64,000 nucleotides of DNA from an uncultured Candidatus Saccharibacteria bacterium (GTDB taxonomy: Bacteria > Patescibacteriota > Minisyncoccia > Phycocordibacterales > DATDWN01): assembly GCA_964616425.1 (NCBI GenBank), contig CAZTQY010000003.1, positions 47,402-111,401 on the forward strand. Reading direction: 5' to 3'. The first letter of the stretch is position 1; each line of letters starts with the position of its first letter. The position numbers and the translations under genes were made by a program. This document shows positions 5,310 to 57,388 of the stretch, one piece after another. The notes under the pieces are model-generated. The model made no database searches and was not told the origin of the DNA. It saw only the letters and a program-made list of their open reading frames with translations.

Positions 5310-5356
5310 TTTGACTAAATTTCAGTAAAATTTAATATTAGTAACTGGAGGGACTG

Positions 5357-5656
5357 ATGCTCAGTCTGAAACAGTTGTTGCTGGTTGCAAAGCTGGAAGC
5401 TGTGGTGAGGAAACCGTCTGGACGTGTTGGCTCAGATAATGTTCGTGTTCCGCATGTAATGGAGCCGCAGCCTGTGGTTTTACAGCCACCTAAACCAGAA
5501 GTGCCGAAAAGGCTGTGCCAGGCATGTCAGGCACATGAGCACCATTCTTGTCGCAAATACGCTGTTCTGACGTCTTATGCCATAAAGATGAAGGCTGGAC
5601 GTCTGAAAAGGTTTAATATCACGAGGCCTTGCCAGTGCTCGTGTCGGGCAAACTGA
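5357..5656 (+). CDS. High-GC cassette A gene 1: small Cys/His-rich protein (possible zinc ribbon)
   Basis: Strong SD ggaggg at 8 nt, CQACQ..HEHHSC..CQCSC. The island is about 55% GC against a 38% background. Confidence 0.4.
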   Translation: MLSLKQLLLVAKLEAVVRKPSGRVGSDNVRVPHVMEPQPVVLQPPKPEVPKRLCQACQAHEHHSCRKYAVLTSYAIKMKAGRLKRFNITRPCQCSCRAN

Positions 5657-5687
5657 ACAGCTAGTACGAGAAAGGATTGAGACCGTT

Positions 5688-5963
5688 ATGCCAAGCATTG
5701 AAAGTCTGATGAACATTTTGAAGTTCAACCGATTCGTCGGAGGAGATGATGGCTCGTGCTTCGGGGTCACTGATCCCAGTCGCTTGCGCTCTCTCGGCCC
5801 GAGTGAGCTCCGTCCACTTCCACCCATTCTCTGCGATAGTTGTGAGAAAGGTGAACACAACTGCGCAGGAAAGGTAAAGGCGATTCGCGCTGACTTTGCT
5901 GATGACCGGCTCAAAGTCGAGCGCATCCAGGTGGACTGTGAGTGTTCTACCTGCAAGAAGTAA
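5688..5963 (+). CDS. High-GC cassette A gene 2: small Cys-rich protein
   Basis: Weak SD, CDSCEKGEHNC..CECSTC, followed by a hairpin terminator. The antisense ORFs overlap the hairpin and have no SD. Confidence 0.35.
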   Translation: MPSIESLMNILKFNRFVGGDDGSCFGVTDPSRLRSLGPSELRPLPPILCDSCEKGEHNCAGKVKAIRADFADDRLKVERIQVDCECSTCKK

Positions 5964-6015
5964 CCGCCAGTCTGGCGCTGACGGAAATCCGCCAGCATCT
6001 AGCTGGCGGTTTCCC
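5964..6015 (+). terminator. GC-rich hairpin terminator of cassette A
   Basis: ccgccagcatctagctggcgg followed by TTTCC. Confidence 0.45.
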
Positions 6016-6071
6016 ATTTACACAATATATTTGATATAATTTACACATTATTCTTTGCATAAATTAATCAA

Positions 6072-7112
6072 ATGGCATTTTTCAGTAAAACAAAAAAAGT
6101 TCGTGTTGCAATAAACGGTTTCGGTAGAATTGGCAGACAATTTCTGAAAGAGAGTTGGGATAATGAAAGTCTAGAAGTGGTTGCAGTTAACGATCTAGGA
6201 AGTGTCGATAATATGGCGTACCTTTTGAAATACGATACGGTTTATAAAACATGGAAGCATGATGTGAAAGTAGACGGTGGAAACCTTGTAATAGACGGTA
6301 GAACAGTAAAATTTGTTTCTGAAAAAGAGCCAACAAAACTTCCTTGGGGAGAGCTTGCAGTTGATGTTGTTGTTGAGTCTACAGGACTTTTCACTTCATA
6401 CGACAAAGCCTCTGTTCATTTAACTGCTGGTGCAAAGAAAGTAGTTATCTCAGCTCCTTCAAAAGGTGGAGACGGAAGTGTGAAAGGTGAAACTATACTC
6501 ATGGGTGTAAACGAGGAAAAGTTCGGTACATGTGATGTTACTTCAAATGCGTCATGTACAACAAACGCTGCTTCGCCACTTATTGCTATTTTGGATGAAA
6601 ACATTGGTATTGAAAAAGCAGTTCTGAACACTGTTCATGGATACACAGCGTCACAAGCACTAGTTGATGGTCCGTCTAAAAAAGATTTGAGAGAGGGAAG
6701 AGCAGCCGCACAGAACATCGTGCCTTCTTCTACAGGAGCAGCTATTGCGGTAACACAGGCATTCACGAAACTAGAAGGTTTGTTTGATGGTATTTCTATC
6801 AGAGTTCCTGTTCCAGCTGGTTCTATTGTGGATGTAACTTTTATTTCAAAGAAAAATACAACTGCAGAGGAAGTGAACAGTGTATTGCGAGCAGCTGCAG
6901 CAAGTGATAGATGGAAAAATATTTTCTCAGCTACAGATGAGGAACTAGTATCATCAGACATTCTCGGTAGTCATTATGGTTCTATCGCAGACCTCAAAAT
7001 GACTCGTGTTGTCGGAGGAAACTTGATAAAGGTTATGGCGTGGTATGACAATGAGGCGGGGTATACGAACATGCTGATTGACCACGTGATAAAAACTGGT
7101 AAAACAATATAA
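6072..7112 (+). CDS. gap: Glyceraldehyde-3-phosphate dehydrogenase
   Basis: NGFGRIGR Rossmann motif and the SCTTNA active-site motif. Confidence 0.95.
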   Translation: MAFFSKTKKVRVAINGFGRIGRQFLKESWDNESLEVVAVNDLGSVDNMAYLLKYDTVYKTWKHDVKVDGGNLVIDGRTVKFVSEKEPTKLPWGELAVDVVVESTGLFTSYDKASVHLTAGAKKVVISAPSKGGDGSVKGETILMGVNEEKFGTCDVTSNASCTTNAASPLIAILDENIGIEKAVLNTVHGYTASQALVDGPSKKDLREGRAAAQNIVPSSTGAAIAVTQAFTKLEGLFDGISIRVPVPAGSIVDVTFISKKNTTAEEVNSVLRAAAASDRWKNIFSATDEELVSSDILGSHYGSIADLKMTRVVGGNLIKVMAWYDNEAGYTNMLIDHVIKTGKTI

Positions 7113-7230
7113 ATTCCAAATTTGGCGAACTCCTCGTTCCCAAATTAAAAATATTCGTCACCTTAGCACTAACTAAGGCTCCTCATCTTTTTAATTTCTC
7201 ACGTCGGATTTCATCCAAATTGTGAAATTT
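7113..7230. mobile_element. MITE-like repeat, family alpha copy 1, with terminal inverted repeats and an internal conserved hairpin
   Basis: Starts immediately after the gap stop. TIRs ttccaaatttggcgaa / ttcatccaaattgtgaa. About 90% identical to 39165-39325. Confidence 0.45.
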
Positions 7231-7290
7231 TGATTTTGGAGTTGTTGAATACTTTATATCTATATACCACAGATTTAGTATAATTAAATT

Positions 7291-7737: not shown

Positions 7738-8401
7738 AGTTCTACCTGCAATAATTCCAGTTAATAAAATTCAACTTGAGGAAGAAATCCAGAGAGTTTT
7801 TTCTTTTGCTAATTTTGTACAAATCGATATTGCAGATGGAACTTTTGCACCAGTGAAAACTTGGCCTTACAACGGCAGAGACGAACAATATTTTGAGGAA
7901 TTAAAAAACCAAATGGCTGGTTGGCCAAAATGGGAAGAAGTCGATATAGAACTACACCTCATGGTTGCACATCCGGAAAATATGTTAGAAGAATGGATTT
8001 CAACTGGAATAGGTTCGGTTGTTGCACACATTGAATCAACAACAGATTTTCAAAAAGTAGTAGATATTTGCAAGTCTCATGAAATGTCACTAGGTGTCGC
8101 TATAAAACCAAGTACAGATATTTCAAAACTTGAACCATTTGTTTCTCAAGTTGATTTTATTCAAGTGATGGGATCAGAAAATATTGGTAGACATGGTGTT
8201 GATCTAGAAAAAAGCGCAATAGAAATGATAAAAGAATTGCGAAAGAAATATTCAGAGAGTATAATTGCTATTGATATAGGTGTTAACGAAGATACTGCAG
8301 AAATTCTTGTTGAAGCTGGCGCAAATAAACTAATTTCAGGTGGCGCAATATTAAATTCAGAAAATCCGGGAGAAGTTTTTGATTTTCTAACATCTCTTTA
8401 A
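7730..8401 (+). CDS. rpe: Ribulose-phosphate 3-epimerase
   Basis: DIADGTFAP..HLMV..ISGG motifs of a TIM-barrel epimerase. Confidence 0.8.
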   Translation: MTKVLPAIIPVNKIQLEEEIQRVFSFANFVQIDIADGTFAPVKTWPYNGRDEQYFEELKNQMAGWPKWEEVDIELHLMVAHPENMLEEWISTGIGSVVAHIESTTDFQKVVDICKSHEMSLGVAIKPSTDISKLEPFVSQVDFIQVMGSENIGRHGVDLEKSAIEMIKELRKKYSESIIAIDIGVNEDTAEILVEAGANKLISGGAILNSENPGEVFDFLTSL

Positions 8402-8402
8402 A

Positions 8403-9305
8403 ATGGCAATGCCAAATTTAACAGACGACAAAATCCGTTTGCTTTCAGAAAAGGCAAAAGCAATACGCATTTCAATCATAGAGATGCTTGTTTCTGCCGG
8501 TTCTGGTCACTCTGCTGGCCCTTTGGGTATGGCTGATATTTTCACTGCACTTTATTTTTTTATTCTACGTCATAATCCAACTGATCCGTTTTGGGAAGGC
8601 CGAGATAGGCTTATACTTTCAAACGGTCACATAAACCCTGTCTTGTATGCAACGATGGCTCACTCAGGATACTTTCCAGTTTCTGAGCTTCTGACACTGA
8701 GAAAGTTTGGCTCAAGGCTTCAGGGTCATCCACATAGAGAGTTTCTTCCAATGTTGGAAAATAGTTCAGGACCACTAGGTTCTGGTTTGTCACAAGCGGT
8801 AGGTATGGCGATAGCAGATAGAATGGATAAAGGAAGAACTTCTGATAGATTTTTCTACTGTTTGCTTGGTGATGGAGAACTAGACGAGGGACAGAACTGG
8901 GAAGCAATAATGTTGGCCAATAAAGAAAGACTTGGAAATTTAATTGTTTTTGTTGATAGAAATAATATTCAGATAGATGGATATACAGAGGATGTTATGC
9001 CTCTTGATTCTGTATTACACAAGTTTGAGAGTTTTGGTTGGCATGCAGAAGAGATAGACGGACATAACTTTGCAGAAATCATCGCTGCTGTTGGGAGAGC
9101 GCAGGCAGTCTTTGATGGACCGAGCGTGATAGTCGCTAGAACTATTCCAGGAAAGGGAGTTTCGTTTATGGAGCGTGACTACAAATGGCATGGTAACCCT
9201 CCAGGAACAGAGTTGCCTGGCGAGCCGCCAAAGGATGAACAAGCAAAAATTGCGTTGCATGACCTCCGTACTCTAGGCGGCCAGATAACATCCGAACATG
9301 AATAA
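8403..9305 (+). CDS. Transketolase, N-terminal (TPP-binding) subunit of a split enzyme
   Basis: GSGHSAGPLGMADI and GDGELDEGQNWEA motifs. Confidence 0.9.
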   Translation: MAMPNLTDDKIRLLSEKAKAIRISIIEMLVSAGSGHSAGPLGMADIFTALYFFILRHNPTDPFWEGRDRLILSNGHINPVLYATMAHSGYFPVSELLTLRKFGSRLQGHPHREFLPMLENSSGPLGSGLSQAVGMAIADRMDKGRTSDRFFYCLLGDGELDEGQNWEAIMLANKERLGNLIVFVDRNNIQIDGYTEDVMPLDSVLHKFESFGWHAEEIDGHNFAEIIAAVGRAQAVFDGPSVIVARTIPGKGVSFMERDYKWHGNPPGTELPGEPPKDEQAKIALHDLRTLGGQITSEHE

Positions 9306-9337
9306 AACTTCCAAAACTGACAAATTTCTTTGTTCTC

Positions 9338-9393
9338 GATTTTACTTTCTCCACGCGCAGTACTAGATGTACAGCTTGGTCGAAAGTAAAATC
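9338..9393 (+). repeat. Hairpin family beta copy 1: 12-bp perfect stem around a conserved 29-nt core
   Basis: gattttactttc [tccacgcgcagtactagatgtacagcttggtc] gaaagtaaaatc. The same core, with a different complementary stem, is at 58277-58330. Confidence 0.45.
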
Positions 9394-9464
9394 TGCGAAC
9401 TTCGAACTTCACACAGTTTTGAAAGTTTTAAGTTTTCAATCCGAATTGTGTTAAAATAATTTAA

Positions 9465-10463
9465 ATGTTAAATTCAAAACAAAAATTAAATCCAAAGATT
9501 TTTGATAAGAAGGTAGAACAACTACCTATTCGTCAGGGATTTGGGGAAGGGTTAGTAAAAGCGGGAGAGAAAAACTCTCAAGTTGTTGGACTTTGTTCAG
9601 ATCTTACAGAGTCAACAAAGATGAATCTGTTCCGTGATAAATTTCCTGAGAGGTTTGTTGAGATAGGTATTGCAGAACAAAACCTTGCATCAGTTGCGAG
9701 TGGAATGTCTGCAATGGGAAAAATCCCATTCATTTCGAGTTATGCAATGTTCTCTCCAGGAAGAAACTGGGAGCAGATACGAACGACTATTTGTTATAAC
9801 GACAGAGCTGTCGTCATCGCAGGAAGTCACGCCGGGATATCTGTTGGTCCAGATGGTGGAACTCATCAGGCAATAGAGGACATAGCTATTACACGTGTTA
9901 TACCAAACATGGTTGTTATTTCTCCGTGTGACGCGATAGAGGCCAGGAAAGCAACTATGGCAGCAGCAGAGCTTGGCAAACCAGTTTATTTGCGACTTGC
10001 TCGAGAAAAAACTCCAGTTATAACTACAGAGGAAACTCCTTTTGAAATCGGAAAAGCACAGATCTACTTTGGAGACGAAAAAGCAAAGGCTGATGCTGGA
10101 ATAATAGCGACAGGAGCTCTTGTTCACAAAGCACTGAAAGTTGCAGAGGATTTGAGTAAAGAGGGAATTACGGTAAAAGTTTTAAATATTTCAACAGTTA
10201 AGCCAATAGACAGTGAAGCAATAATTAATATTGCAAAAACTTGCGGAGCGATAGTTACAGTGGAGGAACATCAGATAATTGGTGGACTTGGTTCCGCAGT
10301 TTCTGAAGTTTTGGTACAAAACTTTCCTGTGCCACAGGAATTTATCGGTGTAAAAAATCTATTTGGCCAAAGTGGTAAACCCGATGAGCTAATTGAACAC
10401 TACGAGATGGGAGAGTCACATATTCTTTCAGCAGTAAAAAAAGTAATTGGAAGGAAAAATTAG
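9465..10463 (+). CDS. Transketolase, C-terminal (pyrimidine-binding) subunit
   Basis: Pyrimidine-binding and C-terminal domain similarity; follows the N-terminal subunit gene. Confidence 0.9.
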   Translation: MLNSKQKLNPKIFDKKVEQLPIRQGFGEGLVKAGEKNSQVVGLCSDLTESTKMNLFRDKFPERFVEIGIAEQNLASVASGMSAMGKIPFISSYAMFSPGRNWEQIRTTICYNDRAVVIAGSHAGISVGPDGGTHQAIEDIAITRVIPNMVVISPCDAIEARKATMAAAELGKPVYLRLAREKTPVITTEETPFEIGKAQIYFGDEKAKADAGIIATGALVHKALKVAEDLSKEGITVKVLNISTVKPIDSEAIINIAKTCGAIVTVEEHQIIGGLGSAVSEVLVQNFPVPQEFIGVKNLFGQSGKPDELIEHYEMGESHILSAVKKVIGRKN

Positions 10464-10484
10464 TCTGAATATTTTATAAATGGG

Positions 10485-10512
10485 AAAGCGCCGGATCTCG
10501 GCGCTATTTCCT
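10485..10512. terminator. Bidirectional hairpin terminator between convergent genes
   Basis: agcgccg gatct cggcgct followed by atttcc. Confidence 0.5.
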
Positions 10513-10519
10513 CCTTTGT

Positions 10520-10906
10520 TCAAAAAATAACAGAGTTGATGTTACTGTCCTCGATGAGTGGGATTGCCACATCGAGTATGGCTGGTGCAGCCTTCACATC
10601 GGTCTTCGCCATCTTTTCGAGAAGAGACGTTAGGCTCATCTTCTTCCCGAAACGCAGTCTTTCCTGACGGCAGAACCTTTGTGCGCCTTCGATCTCAAAC
10701 CCGACATAGTTTCTCTTGCCGATCGTCTCGTGGTTTCGGCGGTGGAGAGAAACGTTAGTCCCGCTCACGTGCTGTACCGTCGTAGAGCAGTCCTCAGCAA
10801 CGACCACGATCTGATCGAGGTCTTTGATGTAGTACGCGTGGGGATGGAAGGAGGGCTTGGTCTTGACCCATTCTGCAAACAGCTTGTCCAACAACTCAGT
10901 ATGCAT
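10520..10906 (-). CDS. High-GC cassette B: hypothetical protein
   Basis: SD agaggt, an AT-rich promoter region upstream, and GC about 52%. Confidence 0.45.
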   Translation of the reverse strand: MHTELLDKLFAEWVKTKPSFHPHAYYIKDLDQIVVVAEDCSTTVQHVSGTNVSLHRRNHETIGKRNYVGFEIEGAQRFCRQERLRFGKKMSLTSLLEKMAKTDVKAAPAILDVAIPLIEDSNINSVIF

Positions 10907-10964
10907 TTAGATACCTCTAGATTTTTATTGTATCAAGGTTGTTTTTATTATTCAACAAAAATGT

Positions 10965-12233: not shown

Positions 12234-12563
12234 ATGGGAATTGATGTAATAAATGAAGTTGATGCCAGAAGCGACATTATAACTCAGGAAGCAAAAAAGG
12301 TAGGTTTGTGGATTATTGGCGCATCAAATAATTGGTTAATACCTGATGCGGTAGTTTTGCCACCAAGAGAAGTTAATGTTGAATATATAAAAAAACGTGA
12401 GAATGGTGAATATGATGGTGGTTTAAAATCAGATCAATTGGAACAACTTGATTCACACCGAGAATGGATAAGAAACATGGCTGAAAAAAATGATGTGCCA
12501 ATTTTCGATTCAGTTGGTGAAGCTACAGATTATATTATGAAAATTTATTTAAATAATAATTAG
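12234..12563 (+). CDS. P-loop NTPase/kinase-like protein; reading frame is open upstream to 11994 and contains the Walker A motif without a canonical in-frame start
   Basis: Upstream in-frame YFILAPSGAGKTHY. SD aaggagg plus ATGATG at 12064 lies in another frame and hits TAA after 4 codons. Likely a 1-nt frameshift in the ttt run near 12072. Confidence 0.5.
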   Translation: MGIDVINEVDARSDIITQEAKKVGLWIIGASNNWLIPDAVVLPPREVNVEYIKKRENGEYDGGLKSDQLEQLDSHREWIRNMAEKNDVPIFDSVGEATDYIMKIYLNNN

Positions 12564-12566
12564 AAA

Positions 12567-13421
12567 ATGAAAGGTATAGAAGGCGCTCAATTTGATGATT
12601 TAAAATTAAATTCCGAAACAATAGATAGAATACCACCAGATTTAGGGGGTACTTCTATTGTAATGCAGAGGCATGGTAAATATGAAAGAGAAACAGGTAG
12701 CCTCACTGAAAGTGGTGAAGAAATTTCTCGAGAAAAGTCTACTAAAATTATTGATGATTTTATTGATAAGATCCCAGAAGACGAAAGAAAGAAGCTAGTA
12801 TTGATGGTGTTGGCTAGCCCAACAGAATTAAACGGAGGACAAAGAAGTATGGAAACTGCCAAAGTTGCTATAGATAGTGCACGTAAAGTTTTTGAAAAAT
12901 ACGGTATACCAGAGGGAAATATCTTAACTACAGATCCTCGACCCGTCGAGGATATAGAAGAGCCAAGGATATTTAAAGAAAATCTAGATTACATGAATTT
13001 CTTATTTGATAAATATGGAAAAGGGACACAGTCTTTCTGGAAAGCTTTTGAGGAAGATGTTCATAAGGATGAGAGGTTGCAATTTGGAGCTGAGGGTCCA
13101 GTTGATATGAGTGATAGGTACGCACATTTTATTGATGTTCTTGGAAGGTACTCTCGACAATTTCATGCAAAAAATCAGGAAGACAAGAAAAGGCTTATAA
13201 TTTGGGTTGTATCACATTATGATACAATAACCACATATATTAAAAATCACGTAGCAAATATTCCGCAAGAAAAGTATGTTCCTGTGGATTATGATGGTGG
13301 AGTGACGATGAATATTAATCCAGAGAACGAGGCGAGTATACAAATTGGAGATACTAAAGTTCCTGTAGAATTATCAAAGCAAGGTAATATTACTGCAAGA
13401 GTGAAAAATCAAGAAAAATAA
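12567..13421 (+). CDS. Histidine phosphatase superfamily protein (phosphoglycerate mutase-like)
   Basis: RHG motif (VMQRHGKYE) and a C-terminal SHYD region. Confidence 0.55.
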   Translation: MKGIEGAQFDDLKLNSETIDRIPPDLGGTSIVMQRHGKYERETGSLTESGEEISREKSTKIIDDFIDKIPEDERKKLVLMVLASPTELNGGQRSMETAKVAIDSARKVFEKYGIPEGNILTTDPRPVEDIEEPRIFKENLDYMNFLFDKYGKGTQSFWKAFEEDVHKDERLQFGAEGPVDMSDRYAHFIDVLGRYSRQFHAKNQEDKKRLIIWVVSHYDTITTYIKNHVANIPQEKYVPVDYDGGVTMNINPENEASIQIGDTKVPVELSKQGNITARVKNQEK

Positions 13422-14296: not shown

Positions 14297-14342
14297 CTTT
14301 CATTTATAAGATTTTTATTGTATAAATGTCTCGGAGGTTTGC

Positions 14343-14561
14343 GTGTTAGATTCTGATACACAGCCAGTTACATTGGATGAAGCCTTTGAAATCTGCCAGC
14401 GAGCGTTCGCTGGTGGACATGTCGATCACGAGAGAGTGCTCGACATCAAAGCCTATTGCTACGTCGATGACAACTTTGCAGTTGCTTTGTATGAGCGACT
14501 GCACTTGTCTGGACATTTCGTTATGTCCGCCCTGGATCGTGCTGTGTACGAAAGCCTGTAA
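14343..14561 (+). CDS. High-GC cassette C: hypothetical 72-aa protein (GTG start)
   Basis: SD ggagg 8 nt upstream of GTG. A terminator follows. Confidence 0.4.
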   Translation: MLDSDTQPVTLDEAFEICQRAFAGGHVDHERVLDIKAYCYVDDNFAVALYERLHLSGHFVMSALDRAVYESL

Positions 14562-14583
14562 AGTACAACACGGTCTACCTTAC

Positions 14584-14620
14584 CTCGTCTGCACGAAAAC
14601 TCGTTGCGGACGAGTTTTCA
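14584..14620 (+). terminator. Hairpin terminator of cassette C
   Basis: ctcgtctgc..gcggacgag followed by a tttt run. Confidence 0.5.
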
Positions 14621-14674
14621 ATTATTTAGCATATAGGGGTTGATTAATTAACACTTTTTGTTATACTGGCCAAC

Positions 14675-43889: not shown

Positions 43890-43899
43890 CACGGGGGAT

Positions 43900-45223: not shown

Positions 45224-45313
45224 GTGTCTGCCTCCAGGTGAGAATCTTTACATTATATTTTTTTACTGTCAAATACTTTTCCACCTTTTTGTATTGCTGG
45301 TACAATAACTAAC

Positions 45314-47038: not shown

Positions 47039-47100
47039 TACATACTTGACAAGTTTATATTATATGTTATGTTACCACTCAGTAACTAGGAGGGACGTAA

Positions 47101-47652: not shown

Positions 47653-47653
47653 A

Positions 47654-47690
47654 GGGCAGTCCTACGAAAAGGGACTGTCCCTTTTCGTAT
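47654..47690 (+). terminator. Terminator of cassette K
   Basis: gggcagtccc tacgaaaa gggactgtccc followed by ttttcg. Confidence 0.65.
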
Positions 47691-48471: not shown

Positions 48472-48636
48472 AATACCAAAACACAGGAGCCTGTGGGGGG
48501 AGGTTGGGATTGGGACCCAACCGCAAGGCCGGAGCGCGGCGGCGCGAGGAGGGGTCGCAAGAAAAGTCAGCAGACTTTTACTTGTGACGTGACTCTCGAG
48601 CAAGATGGTGTTACGAAGTATATAAAAAAATAAAGA

Positions 48637-49635: not shown

Positions 49636-49681
49636 AGATTTATATAAGATATAGAACAAAGTCCATGGAGGGGCGAAAACT

Positions 49682-50059
49682 ATGTCTGTAAGTAGGAGTT
49701 GGGTTGTCGAGATCGATGATTCGATGAGCATCGCAATCATCACGTCGGTAAAGCTTCGGGGTAACTTCGGAAACGGGACCAGAACTTTCTATCCGGGTCA
49801 GCGAGTCCTGCTGACCGTGGATGTCACGGCTCTCGGTCTCGTAAAGGGAGATGAGGTCGTTATTCAAAGCCTCAGCATTCCTGGCGGAGGCAGAAAGTTC
49901 ATCCAGATCGGTCCTGTGCCAAGCGGACAGAAGGTTGACATTTCTCACCTCCAAGTTGCTGAGCTTCCTCAGTCGGTGGAGCCTGCACTGCCGGATTCTG
50001 TTCCTCATGACTGCTCGGCAGTCGAGGAGCCGGAGCCGGCTGGCTACGGTCTCGTCTGA
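49682..50059 (+). CDS. High-GC cassette M gene 1: hypothetical 125-aa protein
   Basis: SD ggagggg, followed by a terminator. Confidence 0.5.
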   Translation: MSVSRSWVVEIDDSMSIAIITSVKLRGNFGNGTRTFYPGQRVLLTVDVTALGLVKGDEVVIQSLSIPGGGRKFIQIGPVPSGQKVDISHLQVAELPQSVEPALPDSVPHDCSAVEEPEPAGYGLV

Positions 50060-50075
50060 AGATCTTTTCTTTACG

Positions 50076-50114
50076 CCTCGCGTGTGGTTTTCACCACTCG
50101 CGAGGTTTCACTTT
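50076..50114 (+). terminator. Terminator, copy 1 of a duplicated terminator element
   Basis: cctcgcgtgtggttttcaccactcgcgagg followed by tttcacttt. Confidence 0.6.
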
Positions 50115-50122
50115 AAAAAAAT

Positions 50123-50151
50123 TTGACCATTGGTGGTATTAAGATTATAAA
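50123..50151 (+). promoter_or_regulatory. Promoter TTGACC-17-TATAAA for cassette M gene 2
   Basis: ttgaccattggtggtattaagattataaa, then SD aggagg. Confidence 0.5.
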
Positions 50152-50168
50152 TATGTGTAGGAGGAGCT

Positions 50169-50558
50169 ATGTCAAAAAGCTCAGTTTACTACTATGTCGG
50201 CTACGACAAGAGCGAGGGAGCTGAGCCAAGAGTCGAGTCGGTCTCAGTTGAGACTGCATCGCGGTCCTTGTACTTCGAGTTGTCGGGTACGATTATCTTG
50301 GAGAAATTCATCCACGGCTTGAGTCGGACTTTTTTCCCAGCTGAGAGAGCCAGTATTATGGAGCTGAAGGCTCCATGCTTTTCAAGCAGTGAAGAAGATT
50401 TGGCTTTTATCGGGGCTATGTTCGAAGGTTCCGACGAGTTGGTTTGGGTTCGACTCAGCCAGGTCAAGAAAGCGTTCACTGCGAAGAAAAGCGAAAGGAG
50501 TGAGGTTCATCCAGAAGATCTGTATGTCTACCCACCCGCTGGCTCCGAGCCGTTCTAG
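50169..50558 (+). CDS. High-GC cassette M gene 2: hypothetical 129-aa protein
   Basis: SD aggagg, with its own promoter and terminator. Confidence 0.5.
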   Translation: MSKSSVYYYVGYDKSEGAEPRVESVSVETASRSLYFELSGTIILEKFIHGLSRTFFPAERASIMELKAPCFSSSEEDLAFIGAMFEGSDELVWVRLSQVKKAFTAKKSERSEVHPEDLYVYPPAGSEPF

Positions 50559-50581
50559 TTCCGTCTACCCCTAGTACCTCG

Positions 50582-50621
50582 CGTGTGGTCGTTCACCACC
50601 CGCGAGGTTTCTCTTTGTTAG
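50582..50621 (+). terminator. Terminator, copy 2 of duplicated element
   Basis: cctcgcgtgtggtcgttcaccacccgcgagg followed by tttctcttt. Confidence 0.6.
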
Positions 50622-50698: not shown

Positions 50699-53600
50699 AT
50701 GAAAAAATTAATGTATATTTTAATCGCCGTCATTGTGCTGAACGGCTTTTTTATTACAAAAACGTATTCTTATTCTTCGTCAGATTTAAATAATAATGGA
50801 ATTCTCGATAACACTGAGTCAGAGGTAATAGTGGATACAAATCAAACACTTCCTTCAGGAGAATACATATTCAATGATTTATATATTACTAATGGCGCAA
50901 CACTGACTTTGGAAGGTAACCCGGATTCTCTAGAATCTTTTAAGGGTGTGAAAATAATTTCAAATAATTTAACTGTAGATTTTGATTCTTCAATCTCCGC
51001 AGACAAAAATGGTTACGGATATTTGTCGGGACTAGGAGCACCAACAACTTTGTATTCTGACGGTGCAAGTTACGGAGGTGCTGGTAGTGGTAACAGTACT
51101 TCCACAATATATGGTTCTTCTGAAATTCCATTGGACCTAGGTAGTGGTGGGGTATTAAATGGTGGTGGAGCAATTCAGCTTATAATCAGTAATAGTTTAA
51201 TAAATAATGGAAGCATTTCAGCCAGAGGGGATGCTTCAGGTAGTGGAGGTAGTATATATGTAAGAACTGGTAGTCTCATGGGTTCTGGTGTTTTTGACGC
51301 AGATGGGGGTAGACTTTTTGCACGCGGATATTTTTGGGGTCCTGGTGGAGGTGGTCGTGTAGCCGTGTATTATAATTCATCAAATTTTTCTGGAACAGTT
51401 TCAGCAAATGGTGGTTGTGGTAGCTATGATGGTTGGTCTATGACTTGTGCAGAAAATGGTACTGCGGGCATGTTTGACGTTCTTGGTAATGATTTATATG
51501 TTAATAAATCTTGGAGGTTTCAAAAGAACGATAGTCCAATAAATCTTAATCATATTTATCTAACACCAAATACTGAGTTAAAAACCGATGAGGATGTAAT
51601 AATAAATATTGCTACTCTATTACTTAATTCTAGATCTACTTTGAATTTATCTAAGAATGATACTGTAAATATTCCAAGTATATATTTATCTGGTGAATCA
51701 AAAATAAATCTTTCTGGAGAAGAAATTTTAAATACTAGTTTATTGGATTTGTCTGGTGGCTCAAGTGTAACTGTGGCTCAGAAAAAAGTTTTGAAACTTG
51801 AGATTCCTAAAATATCAATTTCTTTAGATTCATTTATTTCTGCTGATGAAAAGGGATATGATTATGGTACTGGACCTGGATCTTCTCCAGAATATACATC
51901 AGGGGCAAGTTATGGGGGGTTGGGCTATAACAATATACCTAGTTCAATCTATGGGTCAGATTTAGCTCCCATAGATTTTGGTAGTGCTGGTAACGGTCGT
52001 AATCCAAACGGTGGCGGTGCTATCCGTTTGATTGTATCTGATACTCTGTTAAATAATGGGAGGATATCTGCAAATGGTTCAAATACTTCAAGTGGTGGAA
52101 GTGTTTATATTACAACTAAAAAATTGGATGGAACTGGAGTTATTCAGGCGAATGGTGGCCCCTCATATTGTCCAAATATCTGCTTGGGTCCTGGTGGAGG
52201 AGGTCGTGTGGCTGTGTATTATCAAGATAATACATTTACTGGTTCAATAAAGGCTTCAGGTTATAGTGGGTACGGAGGATTTAGTGAGAATGGTACAGTT
52301 GTGTTTGAATCATCAACTCCAGAATGTGCTGTAGATTGTTTTTCAAATGTTTTATTTATTCCTGGACTCGAAGCAAGTAGGTTGTACGAAAAGAAGACTG
52401 TTCTTGGGATAGAAGTTGAAGATCAATTGTGGGAGCCGAATTTTCCAGGGGAAGTGAATAAGCTTTATTTAAATGAGAATGGCTCATCTTTAAATGAAAA
52501 TATTTATACAAAAGATATTATCAGAACTGGTAGTTTATTCGGCTTTTTTCAATTAGATATTTATAAGAGTTTTGAGGACAGTATGGGTAGTCTGGTTTTG
52601 GAGAACAAAATTAATGATTGGGAATCTTTTCCATATGATTGGAGACAGGATGTCCAGGATATTGTCGATAATGGGACAATGTATAAAGATGGTCAAGTTG
52701 TTTCAATAATAGACACTCTTCAGTCATTGGTTGATTCATCAAAAAATGGAAAAGTCACAATTATCTCTCATAGTAATGGTGGTTTGATAGCCAAGGCTTT
52801 AGTTAAAAAAATTGGTGAAATGAAGCAATCAGGTCAAAGTGATTTGATTGATCATATTGATAGGGTTATTTTAGTCGCTTCTCCTCAACTTGGTACACCA
52901 AGCGCTTTATCTGGTGTATTGCATGGTTATAAACAATCGATACCGGCAGGATTAATGACTGAAATTCAGGCACGTAATTTGGCTAAAAATATGCCGTCTG
53001 CATATGGTCTTTTGCCATCAAAAAAATATTTTGATCAGCTTGGTGTTGGATACGTTGGAATTTTCTCTTCAACTTCTCCGGGAATATATAAAAATATTTA
53101 TAGTAGTGAAATAAATAATTATGAAGAGCAAAATAATTTTATTTTGGGTGTGGAGGGTAGGTCTGAACCTAAAGAAACAGACTTGATCAATCCAATTAAA
53201 GGTAACGAACTATTGTTAGAAAAAGCGGAAAATTTGCATGATTTAATTGATCAGAATGTTTTTCCAGATTCAATTAAAGTTATAGATATAGCAGGTTGGG
53301 GTAAGGAAACTATTTCTGGTATAACATATACAGATTCTGATATACAACCAATATACACAATACGAGGAGACAAAACAGTGGTGGTCCCAAGTGCTTTGTA
53401 TGGACAAGGAACAAAGTATTGGCTGGACTTAAGTCAATCAAAATTGCAACATAATAATATTTTAGAAGATTCTCAGCTCCTAGATTTTATTGTAAGTACA
53501 TTAACTCAAAAACCTCCAGTTTTTTCTCTAGTAACAGATAGTGAGCCTCTACAAGTTGGAGATAGATTACATTTGAGTGTTCATTCTCCAGTTTCTATTG

Positions 53601-54244
53601 GTGTGCATGACGAGTATGGAAATTTTACAGGTAAAGTTTGTGATGATAGTGGCCTCTGTAATGTTATAGAGGATATACCAGGAAGTACGTATTTTGAATT
53701 TGGCGAAGGTAAATATTTAAATTTAGGTAATGGGAATATTCAAAAGATTGAATTACATGGAACAGGCGTAGGAACATTCACTTTTGATTTAGACATAGTT
53801 CATGCAGACAAAACGACTACAGACTTTAGTTTTATCGATATTCCAGTTACAAATTTATCAAAAGCAGAAGTTGTGTTAGATCAAAATAATATCCCAAACA
53901 TTAAGCTTGATGTTTCTGGAGATGGTGTTAATGATTTTGATATAGAACCATCTAATAATTTTGATCCAGTTACTTATCTTCAGATAATGAAAAGCACGAT
54001 AAATTCTCTAGATATTTCACGAAATAAAAAAGAAGAATTGAATAAAAAAATAGATAAGATAATAAAATCTATACAGAAGAACAAATTGAAGAAAATTACC
54101 GAGGCTCTAAATAAATTTAAGCAAGAGGTAAATAAGAGCATGTCTAGAGAGGACCGAGAGCATAGTAAAAAAGGGAACATATCAAAATCGGATGCACAGA
54201 TGTTGCTTGATATGTTGAACAAATTATTAGATAATTTAAGTTAA
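50699..54244 (+). CDS. Giant secreted/surface protein (1181 aa): signal peptide, tandemly duplicated Gly-rich beta-helix-like repeat (about 250 aa x2), central alpha/beta-hydrolase (lipase/PGAP1-like) domain, C-terminal coiled coil
   Basis: Internal repeat ISAD.NGYGY..GASYGG..GGGAI.LI.S..L.NNG.ISA.G..SGGS.Y..T.....G...A.GG..GPGGGGRVAVYY. Nucleophile elbow ISHSNGG. Confidence 0.75.
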   Translation: MKKLMYILIAVIVLNGFFITKTYSYSSSDLNNNGILDNTESEVIVDTNQTLPSGEYIFNDLYITNGATLTLEGNPDSLESFKGVKIISNNLTVDFDSSISADKNGYGYLSGLGAPTTLYSDGASYGGAGSGNSTSTIYGSSEIPLDLGSGGVLNGGGAIQLIISNSLINNGSISARGDASGSGGSIYVRTGSLMGSGVFDADGGRLFARGYFWGPGGGGRVAVYYNSSNFSGTVSANGGCGSYDGWSMTCAENGTAGMFDVLGNDLYVNKSWRFQKNDSPINLNHIYLTPNTELKTDEDVIINIATLLLNSRSTLNLSKNDTVNIPSIYLSGESKINLSGEEILNTSLLDLSGGSSVTVAQKKVLKLEIPKISISLDSFISADEKGYDYGTGPGSSPEYTSGASYGGLGYNNIPSSIYGSDLAPIDFGSAGNGRNPNGGGAIRLIVSDTLLNNGRISANGSNTSSGGSVYITTKKLDGTGVIQANGGPSYCPNICLGPGGGGRVAVYYQDNTFTGSIKASGYSGYGGFSENGTVVFESSTPECAVDCFSNVLFIPGLEASRLYEKKTVLGIEVEDQLWEPNFPGEVNKLYLNENGSSLNENIYTKDIIRTGSLFGFFQLDIYKSFEDSMGSLVLENKINDWESFPYDWRQDVQDIVDNGTMYKDGQVVSIIDTLQSLVDSSKNGKVTIISHSNGGLIAKALVKKIGEMKQSGQSDLIDHIDRVILVASPQLGTPSALSGVLHGYKQSIPAGLMTEIQARNLAKNMPSAYGLLPSKKYFDQLGVGYVGIFSSTSPGIYKNIYSSEINNYEEQNNFILGVEGRSEPKETDLINPIKGNELLLEKAENLHDLIDQNVFPDSIKVIDIAGWGKETISGITYTDSDIQPIYTIRGDKTVVVPSALYGQGTKYWLDLSQSKLQHNNILEDSQLLDFIVSTLTQKPPVFSLVTDSEPLQVGDRLHLSVHSPVSIGVHDEYGNFTGKVCDDSGLCNVIEDIPGSTYFEFGEGKYLNLGNGNIQKIELHGTGVGTFTFDLDIVHADKTTTDFSFIDIPVTNLSKAEVVLDQNNIPNIKLDVSGDGVNDFDIEPSNNFDPVTYLQIMKSTINSLDISRNKKEELNKKIDKIIKSIQKNKLKKITEALNKFKQEVNKSMSREDREHSKKGNISKSDAQMLLDMLNKLLDNLS

Positions 54245-55164: not shown

Positions 55165-55199
55165 TGGCCACCCACGCATGTTGCGGGGTGGCCAGATTT
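55165..55199. terminator. Bidirectional hairpin
   Basis: ggccaccc acgcatgttgcg gggtggcc. Confidence 0.4.
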
Positions 55200-55421
55200 C
55201 TAGAGGGCTATGCCTTGATGTTCCATGGACCACAATAGCAGTCCAATCAACAAGAAGAGCACGATGATGCCGAGTGTGAACGCCCGAGGATGTTTCTCGT
55301 ATAGCTGAGCGAGCTCATCCTCGATTTCTTTGTTTGTTGCGTAAGTGCCCCGGTATTCCAGATTCATGGAGCGCTCGACGTCGGTGGTTAGAGCCTCTGG
55401 GTCGGAGATCTCTTGGGTCAT
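55200..55421 (-). CDS. High-GC cassette N gene 1: 73-aa protein with C-terminal TM helix (start at the internal ATG that has the SD)
   Basis: SD gaggaggg 4 nt upstream of ATG at 55421. C-terminal LGIIVLFLLIGLLLW. Confidence 0.45.
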   Translation of the reverse strand: MTQEISDPEALTTDVERSMNLEYRGTYATNKEIEDELAQLYEKHPRAFTLGIIVLFLLIGLLLWSMEHQGIAL

Positions 55422-55454
55422 GCACCCTCCTCTCAAAATAGCATACAGAAGTGT

Positions 55455-55505
55455 AGAATTTTTTCAAATAAGGAAAGGGCCGTCACCTTTGTAAGATGAC
55501 GGCCT
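55455..55505 (-). terminator. Minus-strand terminator for the small ORF 55549-55719
   Basis: ggccgtca..tgacggcc followed on the minus strand by ctttccttatttg. Confidence 0.5.
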
Positions 55506-55548
55506 TGTATTGCGGATTGTGTGGTGGGGGGGTCTTGCGGGGAACTTG

Positions 55549-55719
55549 CTACTTCTGTACTTCTCGTACGACGTAGCCCGTTTCTGGGCTCCATGCGCGG
55601 ACGACGACCTTGGATTCGGGCTGGTCCTGTTTTTCCTCGACCAACTTGACCTCGTCGAGGGCCAGGAAGTGACGGGGAACCACGTGCCCGACGGAACGGC
55701 GACTCCTTAGTGACGGCAT
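55549..55719 (-). CDS. High-GC cassette N gene 2: 56-aa protein (not in the supplied ORF track; below its length cut-off)
   Basis: SD aggaga 6 nt upstream of ATG at 55719, followed by a terminator. MPSLRSRRSVGHVVPRHFLALDEVKLVEEKQDQPESKVVVRAWSPETGYVVREVQK. Confidence 0.35.
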   Translation of the reverse strand: MPSLRSRRSVGHVVPRHFLALDEVKLVEEKQDQPESKVVVRAWSPETGYVVREVQK

Positions 55720-55866
55720 ATTTGTCTCCTACATAAATAGTAGCACAGTATGGTATATATGTCAAGTATATTTAAATATCAATATTTTAACGTATTTTTG
55801 AATAAAAAATTTAGGAAATAAGTTTTGTGATATAATTTCTTCATTAAAATTTAATTTTTTAAAAAA

Positions 55867-56220
55867 ATGGAAGGAAATAATCAAAATCGATGTGATGTTT
55901 GTGGATCAGGATATGGTCATTGTGGTAAGTGTGGAAACATGTGCGGTTTCGGCGGACGACATATGCTTCGATGGATTTTGGGAATCATTATTATTACTTG
56001 GATTTTTTGTATTGGTATGAAAGTTGGTGAACTAAAAGCGAGTTTGGATCAGTCTTACTTTGGATATGGCCATTCTCGAGTTATGCCAATGATGTATGGT
56101 GCACAAGGCGCTACATGGTCAGGTGATCAAGGAAATGTAATGTTCACTACATCTTCAGCTCCAGCGAGTATGATGACTGGTGTGAAGAGTGGGACTATAC
56201 AAGTTATAAAATCTAACTAG
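55867..56220 (+). CDS. Hypothetical membrane protein with Cys-rich N-terminus
   Basis: CDVCGSGYGHCGKCGNMCGFGG followed by a TM helix. Confidence 0.45.
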   Translation: MEGNNQNRCDVCGSGYGHCGKCGNMCGFGGRHMLRWILGIIIITWIFCIGMKVGELKASLDQSYFGYGHSRVMPMMYGAQGATWSGDQGNVMFTTSSAPASMMTGVKSGTIQVIKSN

Positions 56221-56361
56221 GAAAACAAATAAAATGGCATCATCTGCGGTGTTGCAGTTCAAATTTTTTCGTTCACCATACGCAAAGTATGGCTCACTCT
56301 AAAATTTTCCTGCGCCTAGCATCTGAAACCATTTAATTAGTTTTTAAAAAACAAATAAAAT

Positions 56362-56760
56362 ATGAAAAACAGAGTCGTCCATTTTGAAATATATGCAGAT
56401 GACGTAGAACGTGCAAAGAAATTCTATGCTGATGTTTTTGGTTGGGAATTTACTGATTGGTCTGGTGTTACTGGCACTCCATACTGGGGAGTTATGACTG
56501 CTCCAATGGGAAGTGCTGAACCTGGAATAAACGGTGGACTAATGAAAAGACGAGGACCACAAGTTTCTCCAGATATTGCTGTTATAGGATATGTCTGCAC
56601 AGTTCAAGTAGAAAATATCGATGAAATAATATCAAAAGTTGAGAACGCTGGCGGTGTTGTATCGATGCCAAAATATGCTTTGGGAGATATGGCTGTGCAG
56701 GCATACTACAAAGATACTGAAGGAAATGTTTTCGGGATTCATCAGGTGATAAAGAAATAA
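56362..56760 (+). CDS. VOC-family (glyoxalase/bleomycin-resistance-like) protein
   Basis: VHFEIYADD..FGWEF..GINGGLM..GNVFGIH motifs. Confidence 0.8.
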   Translation: MKNRVVHFEIYADDVERAKKFYADVFGWEFTDWSGVTGTPYWGVMTAPMGSAEPGINGGLMKRRGPQVSPDIAVIGYVCTVQVENIDEIISKVENAGGVVSMPKYALGDMAVQAYYKDTEGNVFGIHQVIKK

Positions 56761-56806
56761 TTGCAAATAGTTTTTTCTTGTATAGAATAAAAAATAGAGG
56801 TGGCCG

Positions 56807-57310
56807 ATGAAGCCGTTCGCTGAGTTGTTGGGGTCTAACAAGGAAAACACCTTCAACTTTTTTCTTTACGGACTGGGTGAGGTAACCGGCAGAAAGAGTG
56901 AGAGTGATCGTGAACTGATGTATGTTACAAGTATTCTGGCACACTTTGCCGGAACACCTTGCTCCTCGAAATACAGGCCGTTTGTTACGCCCACAGATTT
57001 TCGTGTAGTGGTCGATAACTTCGTACTTGGGAGCATTGCGTTTTATGACTCCCATTGTCTTGCAGACGGAGGGGCCAAGACCCTGTTTTTGGCCGGGTTC
57101 TTCCGTAGTCAGATGGCGGGTAGGCATAACGTAAACTGGTGTGACAGTGTTGGCTCGAGTTTGTTCAGACGCGCCGCATCAGTATCCTCAAGTAGGAGAG
57201 AAGCTATCCTGTTTGAAGGTCTCTCACACAGTTTCACCTACTGGACTTTCGTTTGTTCAGAGTTGCAAAAGCATCTACACGAAAGCAGGCTTATGATCAA
57301 AAGTTTGTAA
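56807..57310 (+). CDS. High-GC cassette O: hypothetical 167-aa protein
   Basis: SD agaggtgg, GC about 52%, and a terminator. Confidence 0.45.
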   Translation: MKPFAELLGSNKENTFNFFLYGLGEVTGRKSESDRELMYVTSILAHFAGTPCSSKYRPFVTPTDFRVVVDNFVLGSIAFYDSHCLADGGAKTLFLAGFFRSQMAGRHNVNWCDSVGSSLFRRAASVSSSRREAILFEGLSHSFTYWTFVCSELQKHLHESRLMIKSL

Positions 57311-57321
57311 ATCGTGATTGG

Positions 57322-57358
57322 AAAGGGGCTGGGTATTCGTACCCATGCCCCTTTGTCG
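57322..57358 (+). terminator. Terminator of cassette O
   Basis: aggggctgggtattcgtacccatgcccct followed by ttgtcg. Confidence 0.55.
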
Positions 57359-57388
57359 TAGTTATCCACATATTCTTTATTAACAATG

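Follow-up and report, generated by a model that had tools for sequence, protein, structure and literature searches.

Small GC-rich gene units with Shine-Dalgarno sequences in the spacers of an AT-rich, apparently leaderless housekeeping backbone of a candidate phyla radiation bacterium

Background

Morons are single-gene transcription units inserted between conserved genes in the genomes of lambdoid and other phages, and their definition reportedly goes back to Juhala and Hendrix. Here we describe units of comparable build in a cellular chromosome, namely 16 GC-rich islands holding small genes, which are scattered among AT-rich housekeeping genes on contig CAZTQY010000003.1. The whole stretch of DNA analysed, termed the window below, is 64,000 nt long and has 38.7% GC. 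In other bacteria, ORFans and recently acquired genes are usually AT-richer than the genome that hosts them (PMC3514957), and the cassettes described here run counter to this rule. As to translation signals, ribosomes of the Bacteroidia are blind to the Shine-Dalgarno (SD) sequence and the mRNAs lack it, a strong regulatory SD being found on the rare gene rpsU (PMC7797042, PMC9976891).

Bacteria of the candidate phyla radiation (CPR) are uncultured and have tiny genomes with many unannotated small genes. In the CPR and SD literature, covered incompletely and mainly at the level of titles and abstracts, we found no description of an organization into two such gene classes, and a full-text search, likewise of incomplete coverage, returned no paper combining leaderless with Parcubacteria. 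The window has a two-class anatomy, with at least 22 tiny GC-rich genes among AT-rich housekeeping genes, and the GC-rich units are present or absent as blocks at identical sites in related genomes.

Results and discussion

The housekeeping backbone and its relatives

The backbone of the window comprises nrdAB, gap, tkt, fba, gyrB, dnaE, smc, trmD and rpoB and is syntenic in 80 CPR genomes. These were gathered by a trmD-centred search with one genome per species, which gave 80 syntenic loci, all of them Parcubacteria/Paceibacterota and many labelled Zambryskibacteria; the closest relative in this set is Parcubacteria bacterium C7867-006. On sequence grounds, we assign the window to a Paceibacterota/Zambryskibacteria-like CPR bacterium. 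Labels of the type L001-L097 denote loci of the compared genomes, L091 being the viral contig IMGVR_UViG_3300024331_000091. An earlier reading of the window, made from the sequence only, had placed the islands between housekeeping genes, and Pfam searches agree: the flanks are nrdA/nrdB to gap, tkt to pfkB, fba to L25, pheS to gyrB, a class-II aminoacyl-tRNA synthetase (aaRS) to dnaE, dnaE to rnhB, rnhB to L32, rnc to smc, smc to RNase R, S16-KH to trmD, trmD to pif1 and pif1 to TspO. The same reading held that this is not one classical large island, which is correct, as the units are scattered and measure 0.15-1.0 kb.

Composition and codon usage of the two gene classes

Pooled over 8115 nt, the 16 islands have 51.5% GC (range 47.8-57.9%) versus 36.9% in the rest of the window. 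All 16 were recovered by an independently conducted sliding GC scan with a span of 200 nt, the threshold of which was also passed by some backbone segments that lie outside the island list. The gene-class statistics cover 18 curated island genes and 47 backbone genes. The contrast lies mostly at third codon positions, with pooled GC1/GC2/GC3 values of 56/39/59% in island open reading frames (ORFs) and 49/35/28% in backbone genes. Per gene, GC3 is 0.591 (sd 0.077, minimum 0.49) in the islands against 0.273 (sd 0.048, maximum 0.40) in the backbone (Mann-Whitney p=6e-10), with zero overlap between the two distributions; the lowest GC3 in the window is that of ribosomal protein genes.

Codon usage of the island genes is foreign to the backbone, as had been supposed. 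The AAA/AAG usage of 0.35/0.65 in the islands compares with 0.71/0.29 in the backbone, and TTT/TTC usage of 0.28/0.72 with 0.75/0.25; CGG makes up 0.18 of Arg codons versus 0.01, and CTG 0.24 of Leu codons versus 0.05. There is also a shift in amino-acid composition (R 6.5% vs 3.9%, K 5.8% vs 8.5%). As synonymous choice is reversed within individual amino acids, codon usage does not become equal once amino-acid composition is controlled for, and the GC contrast lies outside normal intragenomic variance.

The window contains AT-rich accessory genes too. Two ORFs at 12234-13421 in the pfkB/fba gap have a GC3 of 0.20-0.24 and no homologue in the 80 relatives, and 50699-54244 encodes an 1181-aa LCAT-domain protein with a GC3 of 0.21 and just 32-51% identity in the nearest relatives. 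Variability alone, therefore, does not give high GC in this genome.

Expression signals of island and backbone genes

An SD core 4-18 nt 5' of the start codon precedes 17 of the 18 island genes, mostly as full GGAGG or AGGAG, versus 3 of the 47 backbone genes (Fisher p=1e-11), the latter count being about that expected by chance in AT-rich sequence. The sole island gene lacking a clear SD is 24504-24896. Terminators were called where the 55 nt 3' of the stop codon fold at a minimum free energy (MFE) of -15 kcal/mol or below; such hairpins follow 15/18 island genes as compared to 8/47 backbone genes. Promoter scoring of 17 island units points to TTGACA-type -35 boxes, -10 boxes at -23 to -40 and leaders of 20-35 nt; six of the -35 boxes are perfect TTGACA, and at least five of the six positions are matched in 10/17 units. 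The promoters are AT-rich although they lie within the islands, and they fit the housekeeping TTGACA/TAnnnT consensus. With a promoter, SD and terminator of its own, each island is predicted to be a complete leadered transcription unit, islands 1, 6, 9, 14 and 15 consisting of two units. Thus, the strong GGAGG-type SDs, the GC-rich hairpin terminators and the self-contained one- or two-gene organization put forward in the sequence-only reading have all held up.

The backbone genes look different. Their lack of an SD had escaped the sequence-only reading, which noted the signal on the island side alone. In 25 of the 47, the first base of a TAnnnT hexamer lies at -15 to -12, in many cases with TG ahead of it, and the hexamer ends 6-9 nt 5' of the ATG; genes starting at 14675, 15420, 17293, 42541, 45314 and 50699 are examples of a -10 box abutting the start codon. 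This spacing, together with the lack of an SD, suggests that about half of the backbone genes bear the signature of leaderless transcripts, and the core as a whole appears leaderless.

The pattern extends beyond the window. In 45 low-GC relatives, the share of ORFs with an SD grows with GC3, being 5% at core-equal GC3 and 48% where the GC3 excess is above 0.3, and GC3-high ORFs make up 0-0.7% of the families in more than eight loci and 31% of singletons. By these sequence statistics, GC-rich SD-led genes are a lineage-wide feature of dozens of related genomes.

The islands and their predicted features are as follows.

Island 1, 5322-6015, plus strand: nrdB/gap gap; TTGACT/AATATT promoter, SD ctGGAGGgactg, GC 52%
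Island 1 ORFs, 5357-5656 (99 aa, GC3 0.49) and 5688-5963 (91 aa, GC3 0.58), plus strand: Cys-rich, CxxC...CxCSxC
Island 1 terminator, 5964-6015, plus strand: hairpin, MFE -28.8
Island 2, 10485-10944, minus strand: between the transketolase C-terminal half and pfkB; SD (GAGG) and terminator
Island 2 ORF, 10520-10906, minus strand: 128 aa, orphan, GC3 0.66
Island 3, 14328-14624, plus strand: fba/L25 gap; ORF 14343-14561 (72 aa, GTG start, GC3 0.49, GC1 0.63), SD cGGAGGtttgc, terminator
Island 4, 24404-24943, minus strand: pheS/gyrB gap; TTGACA-18-CATAAT promoter, terminator
Island 4 ORF, 24504-24896, minus strand: 130 aa, DUF7736 / phrog_15963 (Pfam E=6e-22, PHROG 2.6e-22)
Island 5, 28718-29115, plus strand: class-II aaRS/dnaE gap; TTGACA promoter, SD GGGGGGAG, double hairpin terminator
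Island 5 ORF, 28754-29050, plus strand: 98 aa, orphan, GC3 0.53, downstream MFE -32.5
Island 6, 32441-32926, plus strand: dnaE/rnhB gap; TTGACA-17-CATAAT promoter, two small membrane peptides, then terminator
Island 6 ORFs, 32493-32612 (39 aa) and 32659-32874 (71 aa), plus strand: SD GGAGG or AAGGAG each
Island 7, 33593-34210, plus strand: rnhB/rpmF gap; SD ttGGAGGaagg, terminator 34180-34203
Island 7 ORF, 33641-34150, plus strand: 169 aa, weak NUDIX domain (Pfam E=6.7e-5)
Island 8, 36513-36848, plus strand: rnc/smc gap; ORF 36574-36804 (76 aa, orphan), SD GAGGAG, terminator, GC3 about 0.63
Island 9, 39384-40549, plus strand: smc/RNase R gap; SD before each ORF, terminator 40513-40543
Island 9 ORFs, 39511-40044 (177 aa, C-type-lectin fold) and 40281-40484 (67 aa, small, basic), plus strand
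Island 10, 43427-43932, plus strand: KH-domain gene/trmD gap; extended -10 promoter, SD caGGAGGgcgg, terminator
Island 10 ORF, 43485-43889, plus strand: 134 aa, N-terminal transmembrane helix
Island 11, 44780-45301, minus strand: trmD/pif1 gap; SD ctGGAGGcag, TTGACA promoter, terminator
Island 11 ORF, 44849-45223, minus strand: 124 aa, orphan, GC3 0.82, the maximum in the window
Island 12, 47039-47690, plus strand: pif1/TspO gap; TTGACA-16-TATGTT promoter, SD AGGAGGG, terminator 47654-47680
Island 12 ORF, 47101-47652, plus strand: 183 aa, Pfam Sigma70_r2, Sigma70_r4 and Sigma70_ECF; like extracytoplasmic function (ECF) sigma factors, with regions 2 and 4 only
Island 13, 48478-48633, plus strand: GC 53%; 46-aa Arg/Gly-rich ORF 48493-48633 (GTG start), AGGAG ahead
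Island 14, 49636-50621, plus strand: downstream of the PGA_cap gene; two cassettes, each with its own promoter and GGAGG SD
Island 14 ORFs, 49682-50059 (125 aa) and 50169-50558 (129 aa), plus strand
Island 15, 55165-55770, minus strand: GC 54%; SD and terminator per cassette, TTGACA promoter at about 55760
Island 15 ORFs, 55549-55719 (56 aa) and 55200-55421 (73 aa, C-terminal transmembrane helix), minus strand
Island 16, 56793-57358, plus strand: ORF 56807-57310 (167 aa), SD GAGGTGG, terminator, GC3 0.52

The earlier count of one or two small ORFs per island is right in that these are units of small genes, but islands 6, 13 and 15 hold ORFs beyond those it listed.

The island ORFs are real genes

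Several lines of evidence converge on the island ORFs being real genes. They have the GC1/GC2/GC3 periodicity of coding sequence, an SD followed by a start codon and, in some cases, domains detected by Pfam (sigma-70 regions r2 and r4, a weak NUDIX and DUF7736). The two cassette genes with alignable orthologues have dN/dS values of 0.17 and 0.25, most core genes having 0.03-0.09; in this comparison smc versus L025 is aberrant, apparently due to a misregistered codon alignment, and one core comparison is saturated. The structure model of 39511-40044 shows a lectin fold with confidence. The shortest ORFs, 48493-48633 and 32493-32612, are candidate proteins of unproven coding status; the former is also called in L001. 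High GC has also produced some long island ORFs in a wrong frame or on the antisense strand, and spurious long ORFs on both island strands, such as 47086-47628(-) and 5480-5998(-), could mislead gene callers.

Structured RNAs do form GC peaks in AT-rich genomes and several islands carry long ORFs on both strands, which might be taken to mean that the islands are not protein-coding at all, being GC-rich structured RNAs, repeats, or chimeras of assembly or contamination. We give this almost no credence. A scan of the window at Rfam gathering thresholds matched only tRNA-Thr, and structured non-coding RNA was rejected on this result and on the coding periodicity and SD/start pairs. All-against-all comparison of the islands by blastn and tblastx gave matches at chance level only; the cassettes being mutually unrelated, a repeat family, including miniature inverted-repeat transposable elements or repetitive extragenic palindromic (REP)-type repeats, was likewise discarded. 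A chimera is ruled out by four independent assemblies, in which the sigma-factor island and its junctions are identical. With the domains, the confident fold and dN/dS below 1 added, the non-protein explanation is already refuted for most units, and the shortest ORFs remain candidates.

Presence and absence of whole units in spacers between conserved genes

The relatives have the backbone proteins of 33-55 kb in collinear order at 70-95% identity, whereas most island proteins have no match there. The gaps themselves vary in the same manner. The rnc/smc gap measures 321 nt in the window and 9-49 nt in L021, L007, L005 and L010, and is filled with other sequence in L013 (2433 nt at 53% GC) and L024 (618 nt at 53% GC). 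The tkt/pfkB gap measures 507 nt in the window and 5 nt in L092 and L097. The pif1/TspO gap, with 705 nt in the window, is reduced to 16 nt in L005 and 34 nt in L025, and in L015 it holds an unrelated GC-rich, SD-led unit of the same build. Hence, the presence/absence polymorphism suspected from the sequence is real, with gaps of 5-50 nt in close relatives at three sites. A TGATATAAT box located 7 nt 5' of the TspO ATG in L005 and L025 shares nucleotides with the pif1 stop codon; the spacer in the window holds, in order, a promoter, an SD, the sigma-factor ORF and a terminator, with a fresh TGGTATAAT promoter box for TspO standing 3' of island 12. Cassette edges are sharp, and adjoining core genes are AT-rich up to their stop codons.

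Islands are found where genes turn over, and their GC might have been thought to be raised by GC-biased gene conversion or a different local mutational regime at recombination hot spots in the variable spacers. Such a process would also be in keeping with elevated GC at all three codon positions and with the persistence of high GC3 in homologues (see below). We consider this improbable, since the edges are sharp against AT-rich neighbours and the promoters inside the islands are AT-rich; moreover, accessory genes at variable sites, e.g. 12234-13421, can be AT-rich, and the SD and promoter architecture would be left unaccounted for.

A cassette family related to variable proteins of diversity-generating retroelements

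The largest cassette family is that of 39511-40044, with 4286 representative clusters at E<=1e-3, and all its named members belong to the CPR (Kaiser-, Moran- and Campbellbacteria, Paceibacterota). The protein combines the C-type-lectin fold of the confident model with a variable C-terminal region of about 40 residues. In three of four contexts, homologues adjoin genes for Avd and a reverse transcriptase (RT), and the 3' end is repeated at 82-94% identity, as in the variable and template repeats (VR/TR) of diversity-generating retroelements (DGRs); these contexts are L085, L086 and L088 (about 8001-10500) from Campbell-, Kaiser- and Moranbacteria. Given this neighbourhood and the VR/TR repeats, 39511-40044 is predicted from sequence and model to be homologous to the variable proteins of DGRs. 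The 64-kb window yielded neither an RT or Avd gene nor a template repeat for it, and it may be a DGR target that has been orphaned or is served from a distance.

A scan of IMG/VR based on the family alignment returned a single contig, L091, which is 36.9 kb long at 48.7% GC and codes for an RT and a lectin-fold target gene that is akin to the CPR family and has its own DGR. The GC3 of this gene equals that of the phage itself, and one promoter on the contig looks leaderless (gatataattat ATG). L091 may be a CPR phage with a composition like that of the cassettes, and it is the single hint of a phage-linked pool at about 50% GC.

Origin and upkeep of the cassettes

Our favoured reading, which we hold to be about evenly balanced in probability against all others together, is that the islands are moron-like autonomous accessory cassettes drawn from an SD-using pool of about 50% GC. 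A cassette would consist of a -35/-10 promoter, a leader of 20-35 nt with a strong SD, one (or two) small GC-rich ORFs and an intrinsic terminator, and whole cassettes would come and go as blocks where short spacers separate conserved genes. As all signals lie on the cassette and the downstream neighbour would keep or regain its own leaderless promoter, insertion would leave the compact backbone undisturbed. The pool may belong to the bacterial group at large and provide lectin-fold binders, membrane peptides, Cys-rich mini-proteins, a sigma factor, NUDIX and a phage-family DUF; it would be SD-dependent at about 50% GC, the core being leaderless or SD-less at about 37%. The units would be inserted by illegitimate recombination, the pool being mobile or linked to phages.

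A number of observations weigh against such an acquisition. No donor was found for any cassette, and no integrase, repeat or target-site duplication was detected at cassette junctions. Six cassette families (33641, 39511, 40281, 43485, 49682 and 56807) have homologues at the same or a nearby position in relatives, and these resident families keep a GC3 of 0.34-0.66 against a core of 0.23-0.32. Homologue GC3 exceeds that of the own genome's core in 17/17 cellular cases, by 0.07-0.40, although dS between these genomes is saturated at 0.8-2.4 for cassettes and core alike; a simple recent import followed by amelioration does not fit this persistence. In an estimate from a two-state model, which was not fitted, a one-off import would retain 20-45% of its initial GC3 excess. 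In other CPR classes, high GC and an SD are limited, within the DGR loci, to the target gene, its RT and Avd neighbours being AT-rich and SD-less; this speaks for a trait upheld on the gene itself and not for a trace of where it came from. Finally, SD use is something that we infer, the 171 loci containing no 16S rRNA 3' end, and an anti-SD motif has been reported for no more than 48% of Parcubacteria (PMC9297842).

We take the six families to be long-term residents with a maintained composition and not fresh imports. The possibility that the cassettes might be ancient native genes, which the sequence-only reading had named among the outcomes that would speak against acquisition, is thereby partly borne out for these families, which retain an elevated GC3 at the same or a nearby site. 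Repeated exchange with the pool and selection on the mRNA are both candidates for the upkeep of GC3. The SD is kept in 12-13 of 15 homologues, even at 26-35% protein identity; such retention in homologues of only 26-50% identity suggests that ribosomes of the lineage still read it, and each cell would then have two modes of initiation.

These same data lend weight to a second explanation, in which the cassettes form a native second gene class of vertically inherited, fast-evolving accessory genes. Their GC3, SD and leader would be held by selection, e.g. for a structured, stable, GC-rich monocistronic mRNA that needs an SD, or for rare GC-ending codons that throttle expression, and presence/absence would mostly reflect loss and divergence beyond recognition. 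In addition to the persistence of GC3 and SD across saturated dS, the cassette dS values of 0.79 and 1.32 lie within the core range of 0.75-2.4 and fit vertical descent, families remain in the same gap, and the amino-acid shift towards R and away from K indicates long-term GC pressure. In Campbell-, Kaiser- and Moranbacteria, too, members of the 39511-40044 family have a high GC3 and an SD next to RT and Avd genes that are AT-rich. We nevertheless consider vertical descent unlikely as the general explanation, though it has to be taken seriously: the 5-50 nt gaps in close relatives contain no remnant of a lost gene, a given gap can be occupied by unrelated units depending on the genome, and most cassettes lack a homologue even where core proteins are 85-95% identical. 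Moreover, no selective force is known for a 30-point shift in GC3 limited to accessory genes, and ribosomal protein genes have the lowest GC3 of the window.

The sequence-only reading had instead proposed transfer from a high-GC phage or actinobacterial source. Recent acquisition from Actinobacteria of high GC, or from phages infecting them, is very improbable and already largely refuted. It draws on one gene reaching a GC3 of 0.82 and on DUF7736 (24504-24896), the best phage matches of which are in Mycobacterium and Microbacterium phages; by tblastn, Mycobacterium abscessus prophages (48.6%) come first, followed by a Microbacterium phage and Caulobacter phages. However, DUF7736 identity does not exceed 49%, and contrary to the expectation of actinobacterial or phage best matches, this is the only phage-like protein, most of the others being orphans or CPR-restricted. 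The largest family is confined to the CPR. Searches of 5.8e9 proteins with the protein of GC3 0.82 (island 11) returned nothing but its own entry and one 88% copy, and those with the sigma factor no homologue above 41% identity beyond same-species copies. Codon-position GC is reportedly related to genome GC by the regressions of Muto and Osawa and of Lawrence and Ochman (1997). With their coefficients, the pooled 56/39/59% would correspond to a genome of about 51-53% GC at equilibrium, and GC1/GC2 of 56/39% are too low for partly ameliorated DNA of 65-70% GC, which disfavours an actinobacterial source.

Other searches for relatives of the cassettes gave little. IMG/VR scans with five cassette proteins found no match, PADLOC defence models matched none of ten cassette proteins, and among PHROGs there were matches to DUF7736 and the sigma factor only. 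Higher-GC relatives were rejected as donors: same-clade genomes with at least 42% GC are also SD-less, and there are no island protein matches in them. The SD of the prfB frameshift was dropped as a proxy for anti-SD function, as release factor 17293-18267 appears to be RF1; it is RF1-like by the PAT motif in its translation, and no frameshift site was found upstream.

More tentatively, low-GC Parcubacteria may have two gene-expression regimes with an actively maintained gap between them, one for an AT-rich, leaderless core with an extended -10 box and another for GC-rich accessory genes with a -35 box, SD and terminator. The latter would include host-interaction proteins such as DGR targets, and its upkeep would be due to selection or to exchange with a CPR-specific pool. 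If this possibility is borne out, the cell or its phages could control the accessory set at translation initiation, and the anti-SD would be retained in these lineages chiefly for accessory genes.

Individual cassettes and neighbouring elements

The sigma-70-family factor announced by the sequence-only reading is confirmed by Pfam regions 2 and 4. Its cassette is monocistronic, with no co-transcribed anti-sigma factor and no ECF-type (AAC...CGT) autoregulated promoter. The accompanying idea of a regulon composed of this factor and its targets is not supported: the island promoters are of the housekeeping type, with no shared non-canonical motif, and the nearest relatives have GC-rich cassettes although they lack the one with the sigma factor. 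The predicted Nudix hydrolase is borne out as a domain in island 7, if by the weak match listed above; L011 and L022 have homologues with 25-33% identity, each of them with an SD and an elevated GC3. The helix-turn-helix protein, in contrast, could not be confirmed, that label for 40281-40484 going back to one weak PHROG match (E=0.0018) that we did not adopt.

Both Cys-rich proteins of island 1 possibly bind zinc; they are paralogues in tandem (BLASTP E=7e-6) and have the pattern CxxC...H..C...CxCS.C in common. In island 14, the terminators at about 50076-50109 and 50577-50611 are near-identical (CCTCGCGTGTGGT..TTCACCAC.CGCGAGGTTTC), and the two proteins have in common only a short motif (TRTFYPGQR / SRTFFPAER), which suggests tandem duplication of the whole cassette followed by fast protein divergence. 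Together, the island 1 paralogues and the island 14 terminators speak for whole-cassette tandem duplication as a process. The gene 49682-50059 has a 62% identical counterpart in L005 (dN/dS 0.25), with a GC3 of 0.58 in the window and 0.64 in L005. Positional homologues of island 10 with 35-42% identity lie 5' of trmD in L008 and L025, the SD being kept in L008. Homologues of the island 16 protein, at 26-35% identity, are found in L015, L040, L036, L027 and L030, directly 3' of PGA_cap in L015 and L036; GC3 is above that of the own core in 5/5, and AGGAG or GGAGG is present in 4/5. The island 1 and island 3 proteins have no homologue among the 80 metagenome relatives, and that of island 2 has no relative in Pfam, PHROG, PADLOC or IMG/VR.

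In the 32493-32612 peptide of island 6, the C-terminal transmembrane segment is a run of nine Val residues encoded by a (GGTCGT)n hexanucleotide repeat, the length of which could change by slippage. Next to island 4, the longest gyrB ORF (GTG 24838) runs 59 nt into the start of the minus-strand DUF7736 gene (24838-24896), and because of this overlap the true gyrB start probably lies further downstream. The tRNA-Thr(TGT) gene at 20334-20409 is immediately followed by a low-GC gene for a 161-aa HNH endonuclease (20429-20914); the pair may be a small mobile or homing element separate from the GC-rich cassettes.

Significance and comparison with known systems

A rule combining GC3, SD and terminator that separates accessory from core genes could aid gene calling, pangenomics and the search for host-interaction factors in CPR bacteria; gene calling would gain since GC-rich islands yield spurious ORFs on both strands. 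With the anti-SD reportedly missing in many Parcubacteria, the two gene sets raise the question of how cells translate differently signalled mRNAs. Were the GC gap under active maintenance, two compositional equilibria would coexist in a single small genome, which would be unusual.

The units differ from classical genomic islands in measuring only 0.15-1.0 kb, in having no integrase domain among the island ORFs and in lacking shared repeats; the only tRNA in the window (20334-20409) is not adjacent to any island. Integron cassettes are promoterless, carry attC and are arrayed by an integrase, whereas the present ones lie apart from one another, possess promoters of their own and have no terminal repeat in common. 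The island 12 protein resembles ECF/group-4 sigma factors in having regions 2 and 4 only in 183 aa, and departs from them in the lack of a co-transcribed anti-sigma factor or AAC...CGT promoter. Similarly, 39511-40044, alone among the cassette products, matches CPR DGR variable proteins in its C-type-lectin fold and hypervariable C-terminal stretch of about 40 residues, but is unlike CPR DGR loci in that RT, Avd and template repeat are missing from the 64-kb window.

As in HGT (horizontal gene transfer) hot spots, islets and ORFans, lineage-restricted short genes of variable presence occupy core-flanked spacers. Unlike ORFans, the cassettes are about 15 points GC-richer than their surroundings, form single-gene units with no integrase or tRNA association, and keep high GC in old residents. 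With the Bacteroidia, the window shares an SD-less majority and a small, strongly SD-led subset, which would imply two initiation modes. There, the SD gene is an autoregulated ribosomal protein gene and the core has A-rich leaders; in the window, the SD-led subset is a compositionally foreign accessory class and the core looks leaderless.

By analogy, the closest known thing appears to be the phage moron, three of the four defining features of which are present. The cassettes are small genes with a sigma-70-type promoter and a factor-independent terminator of their own, they stand between genes that are adjacent in relatives (5-50 nt gaps at tkt/pfkB, rnc/smc and pif1/TspO), and their composition is unlike that of their neighbours (GC3 0.59 vs 0.27). 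They differ from morons in that the host is a cellular housekeeping chromosome, neither phage nor prophage, in their density of 16 occupied spacers per 52 kb, and in a translation-initiation mode that also differs from that of the backbone. What would be new here is thus the coupling of moron-like HGT islets in a CPR chromosome to a switched promoter and initiation architecture.

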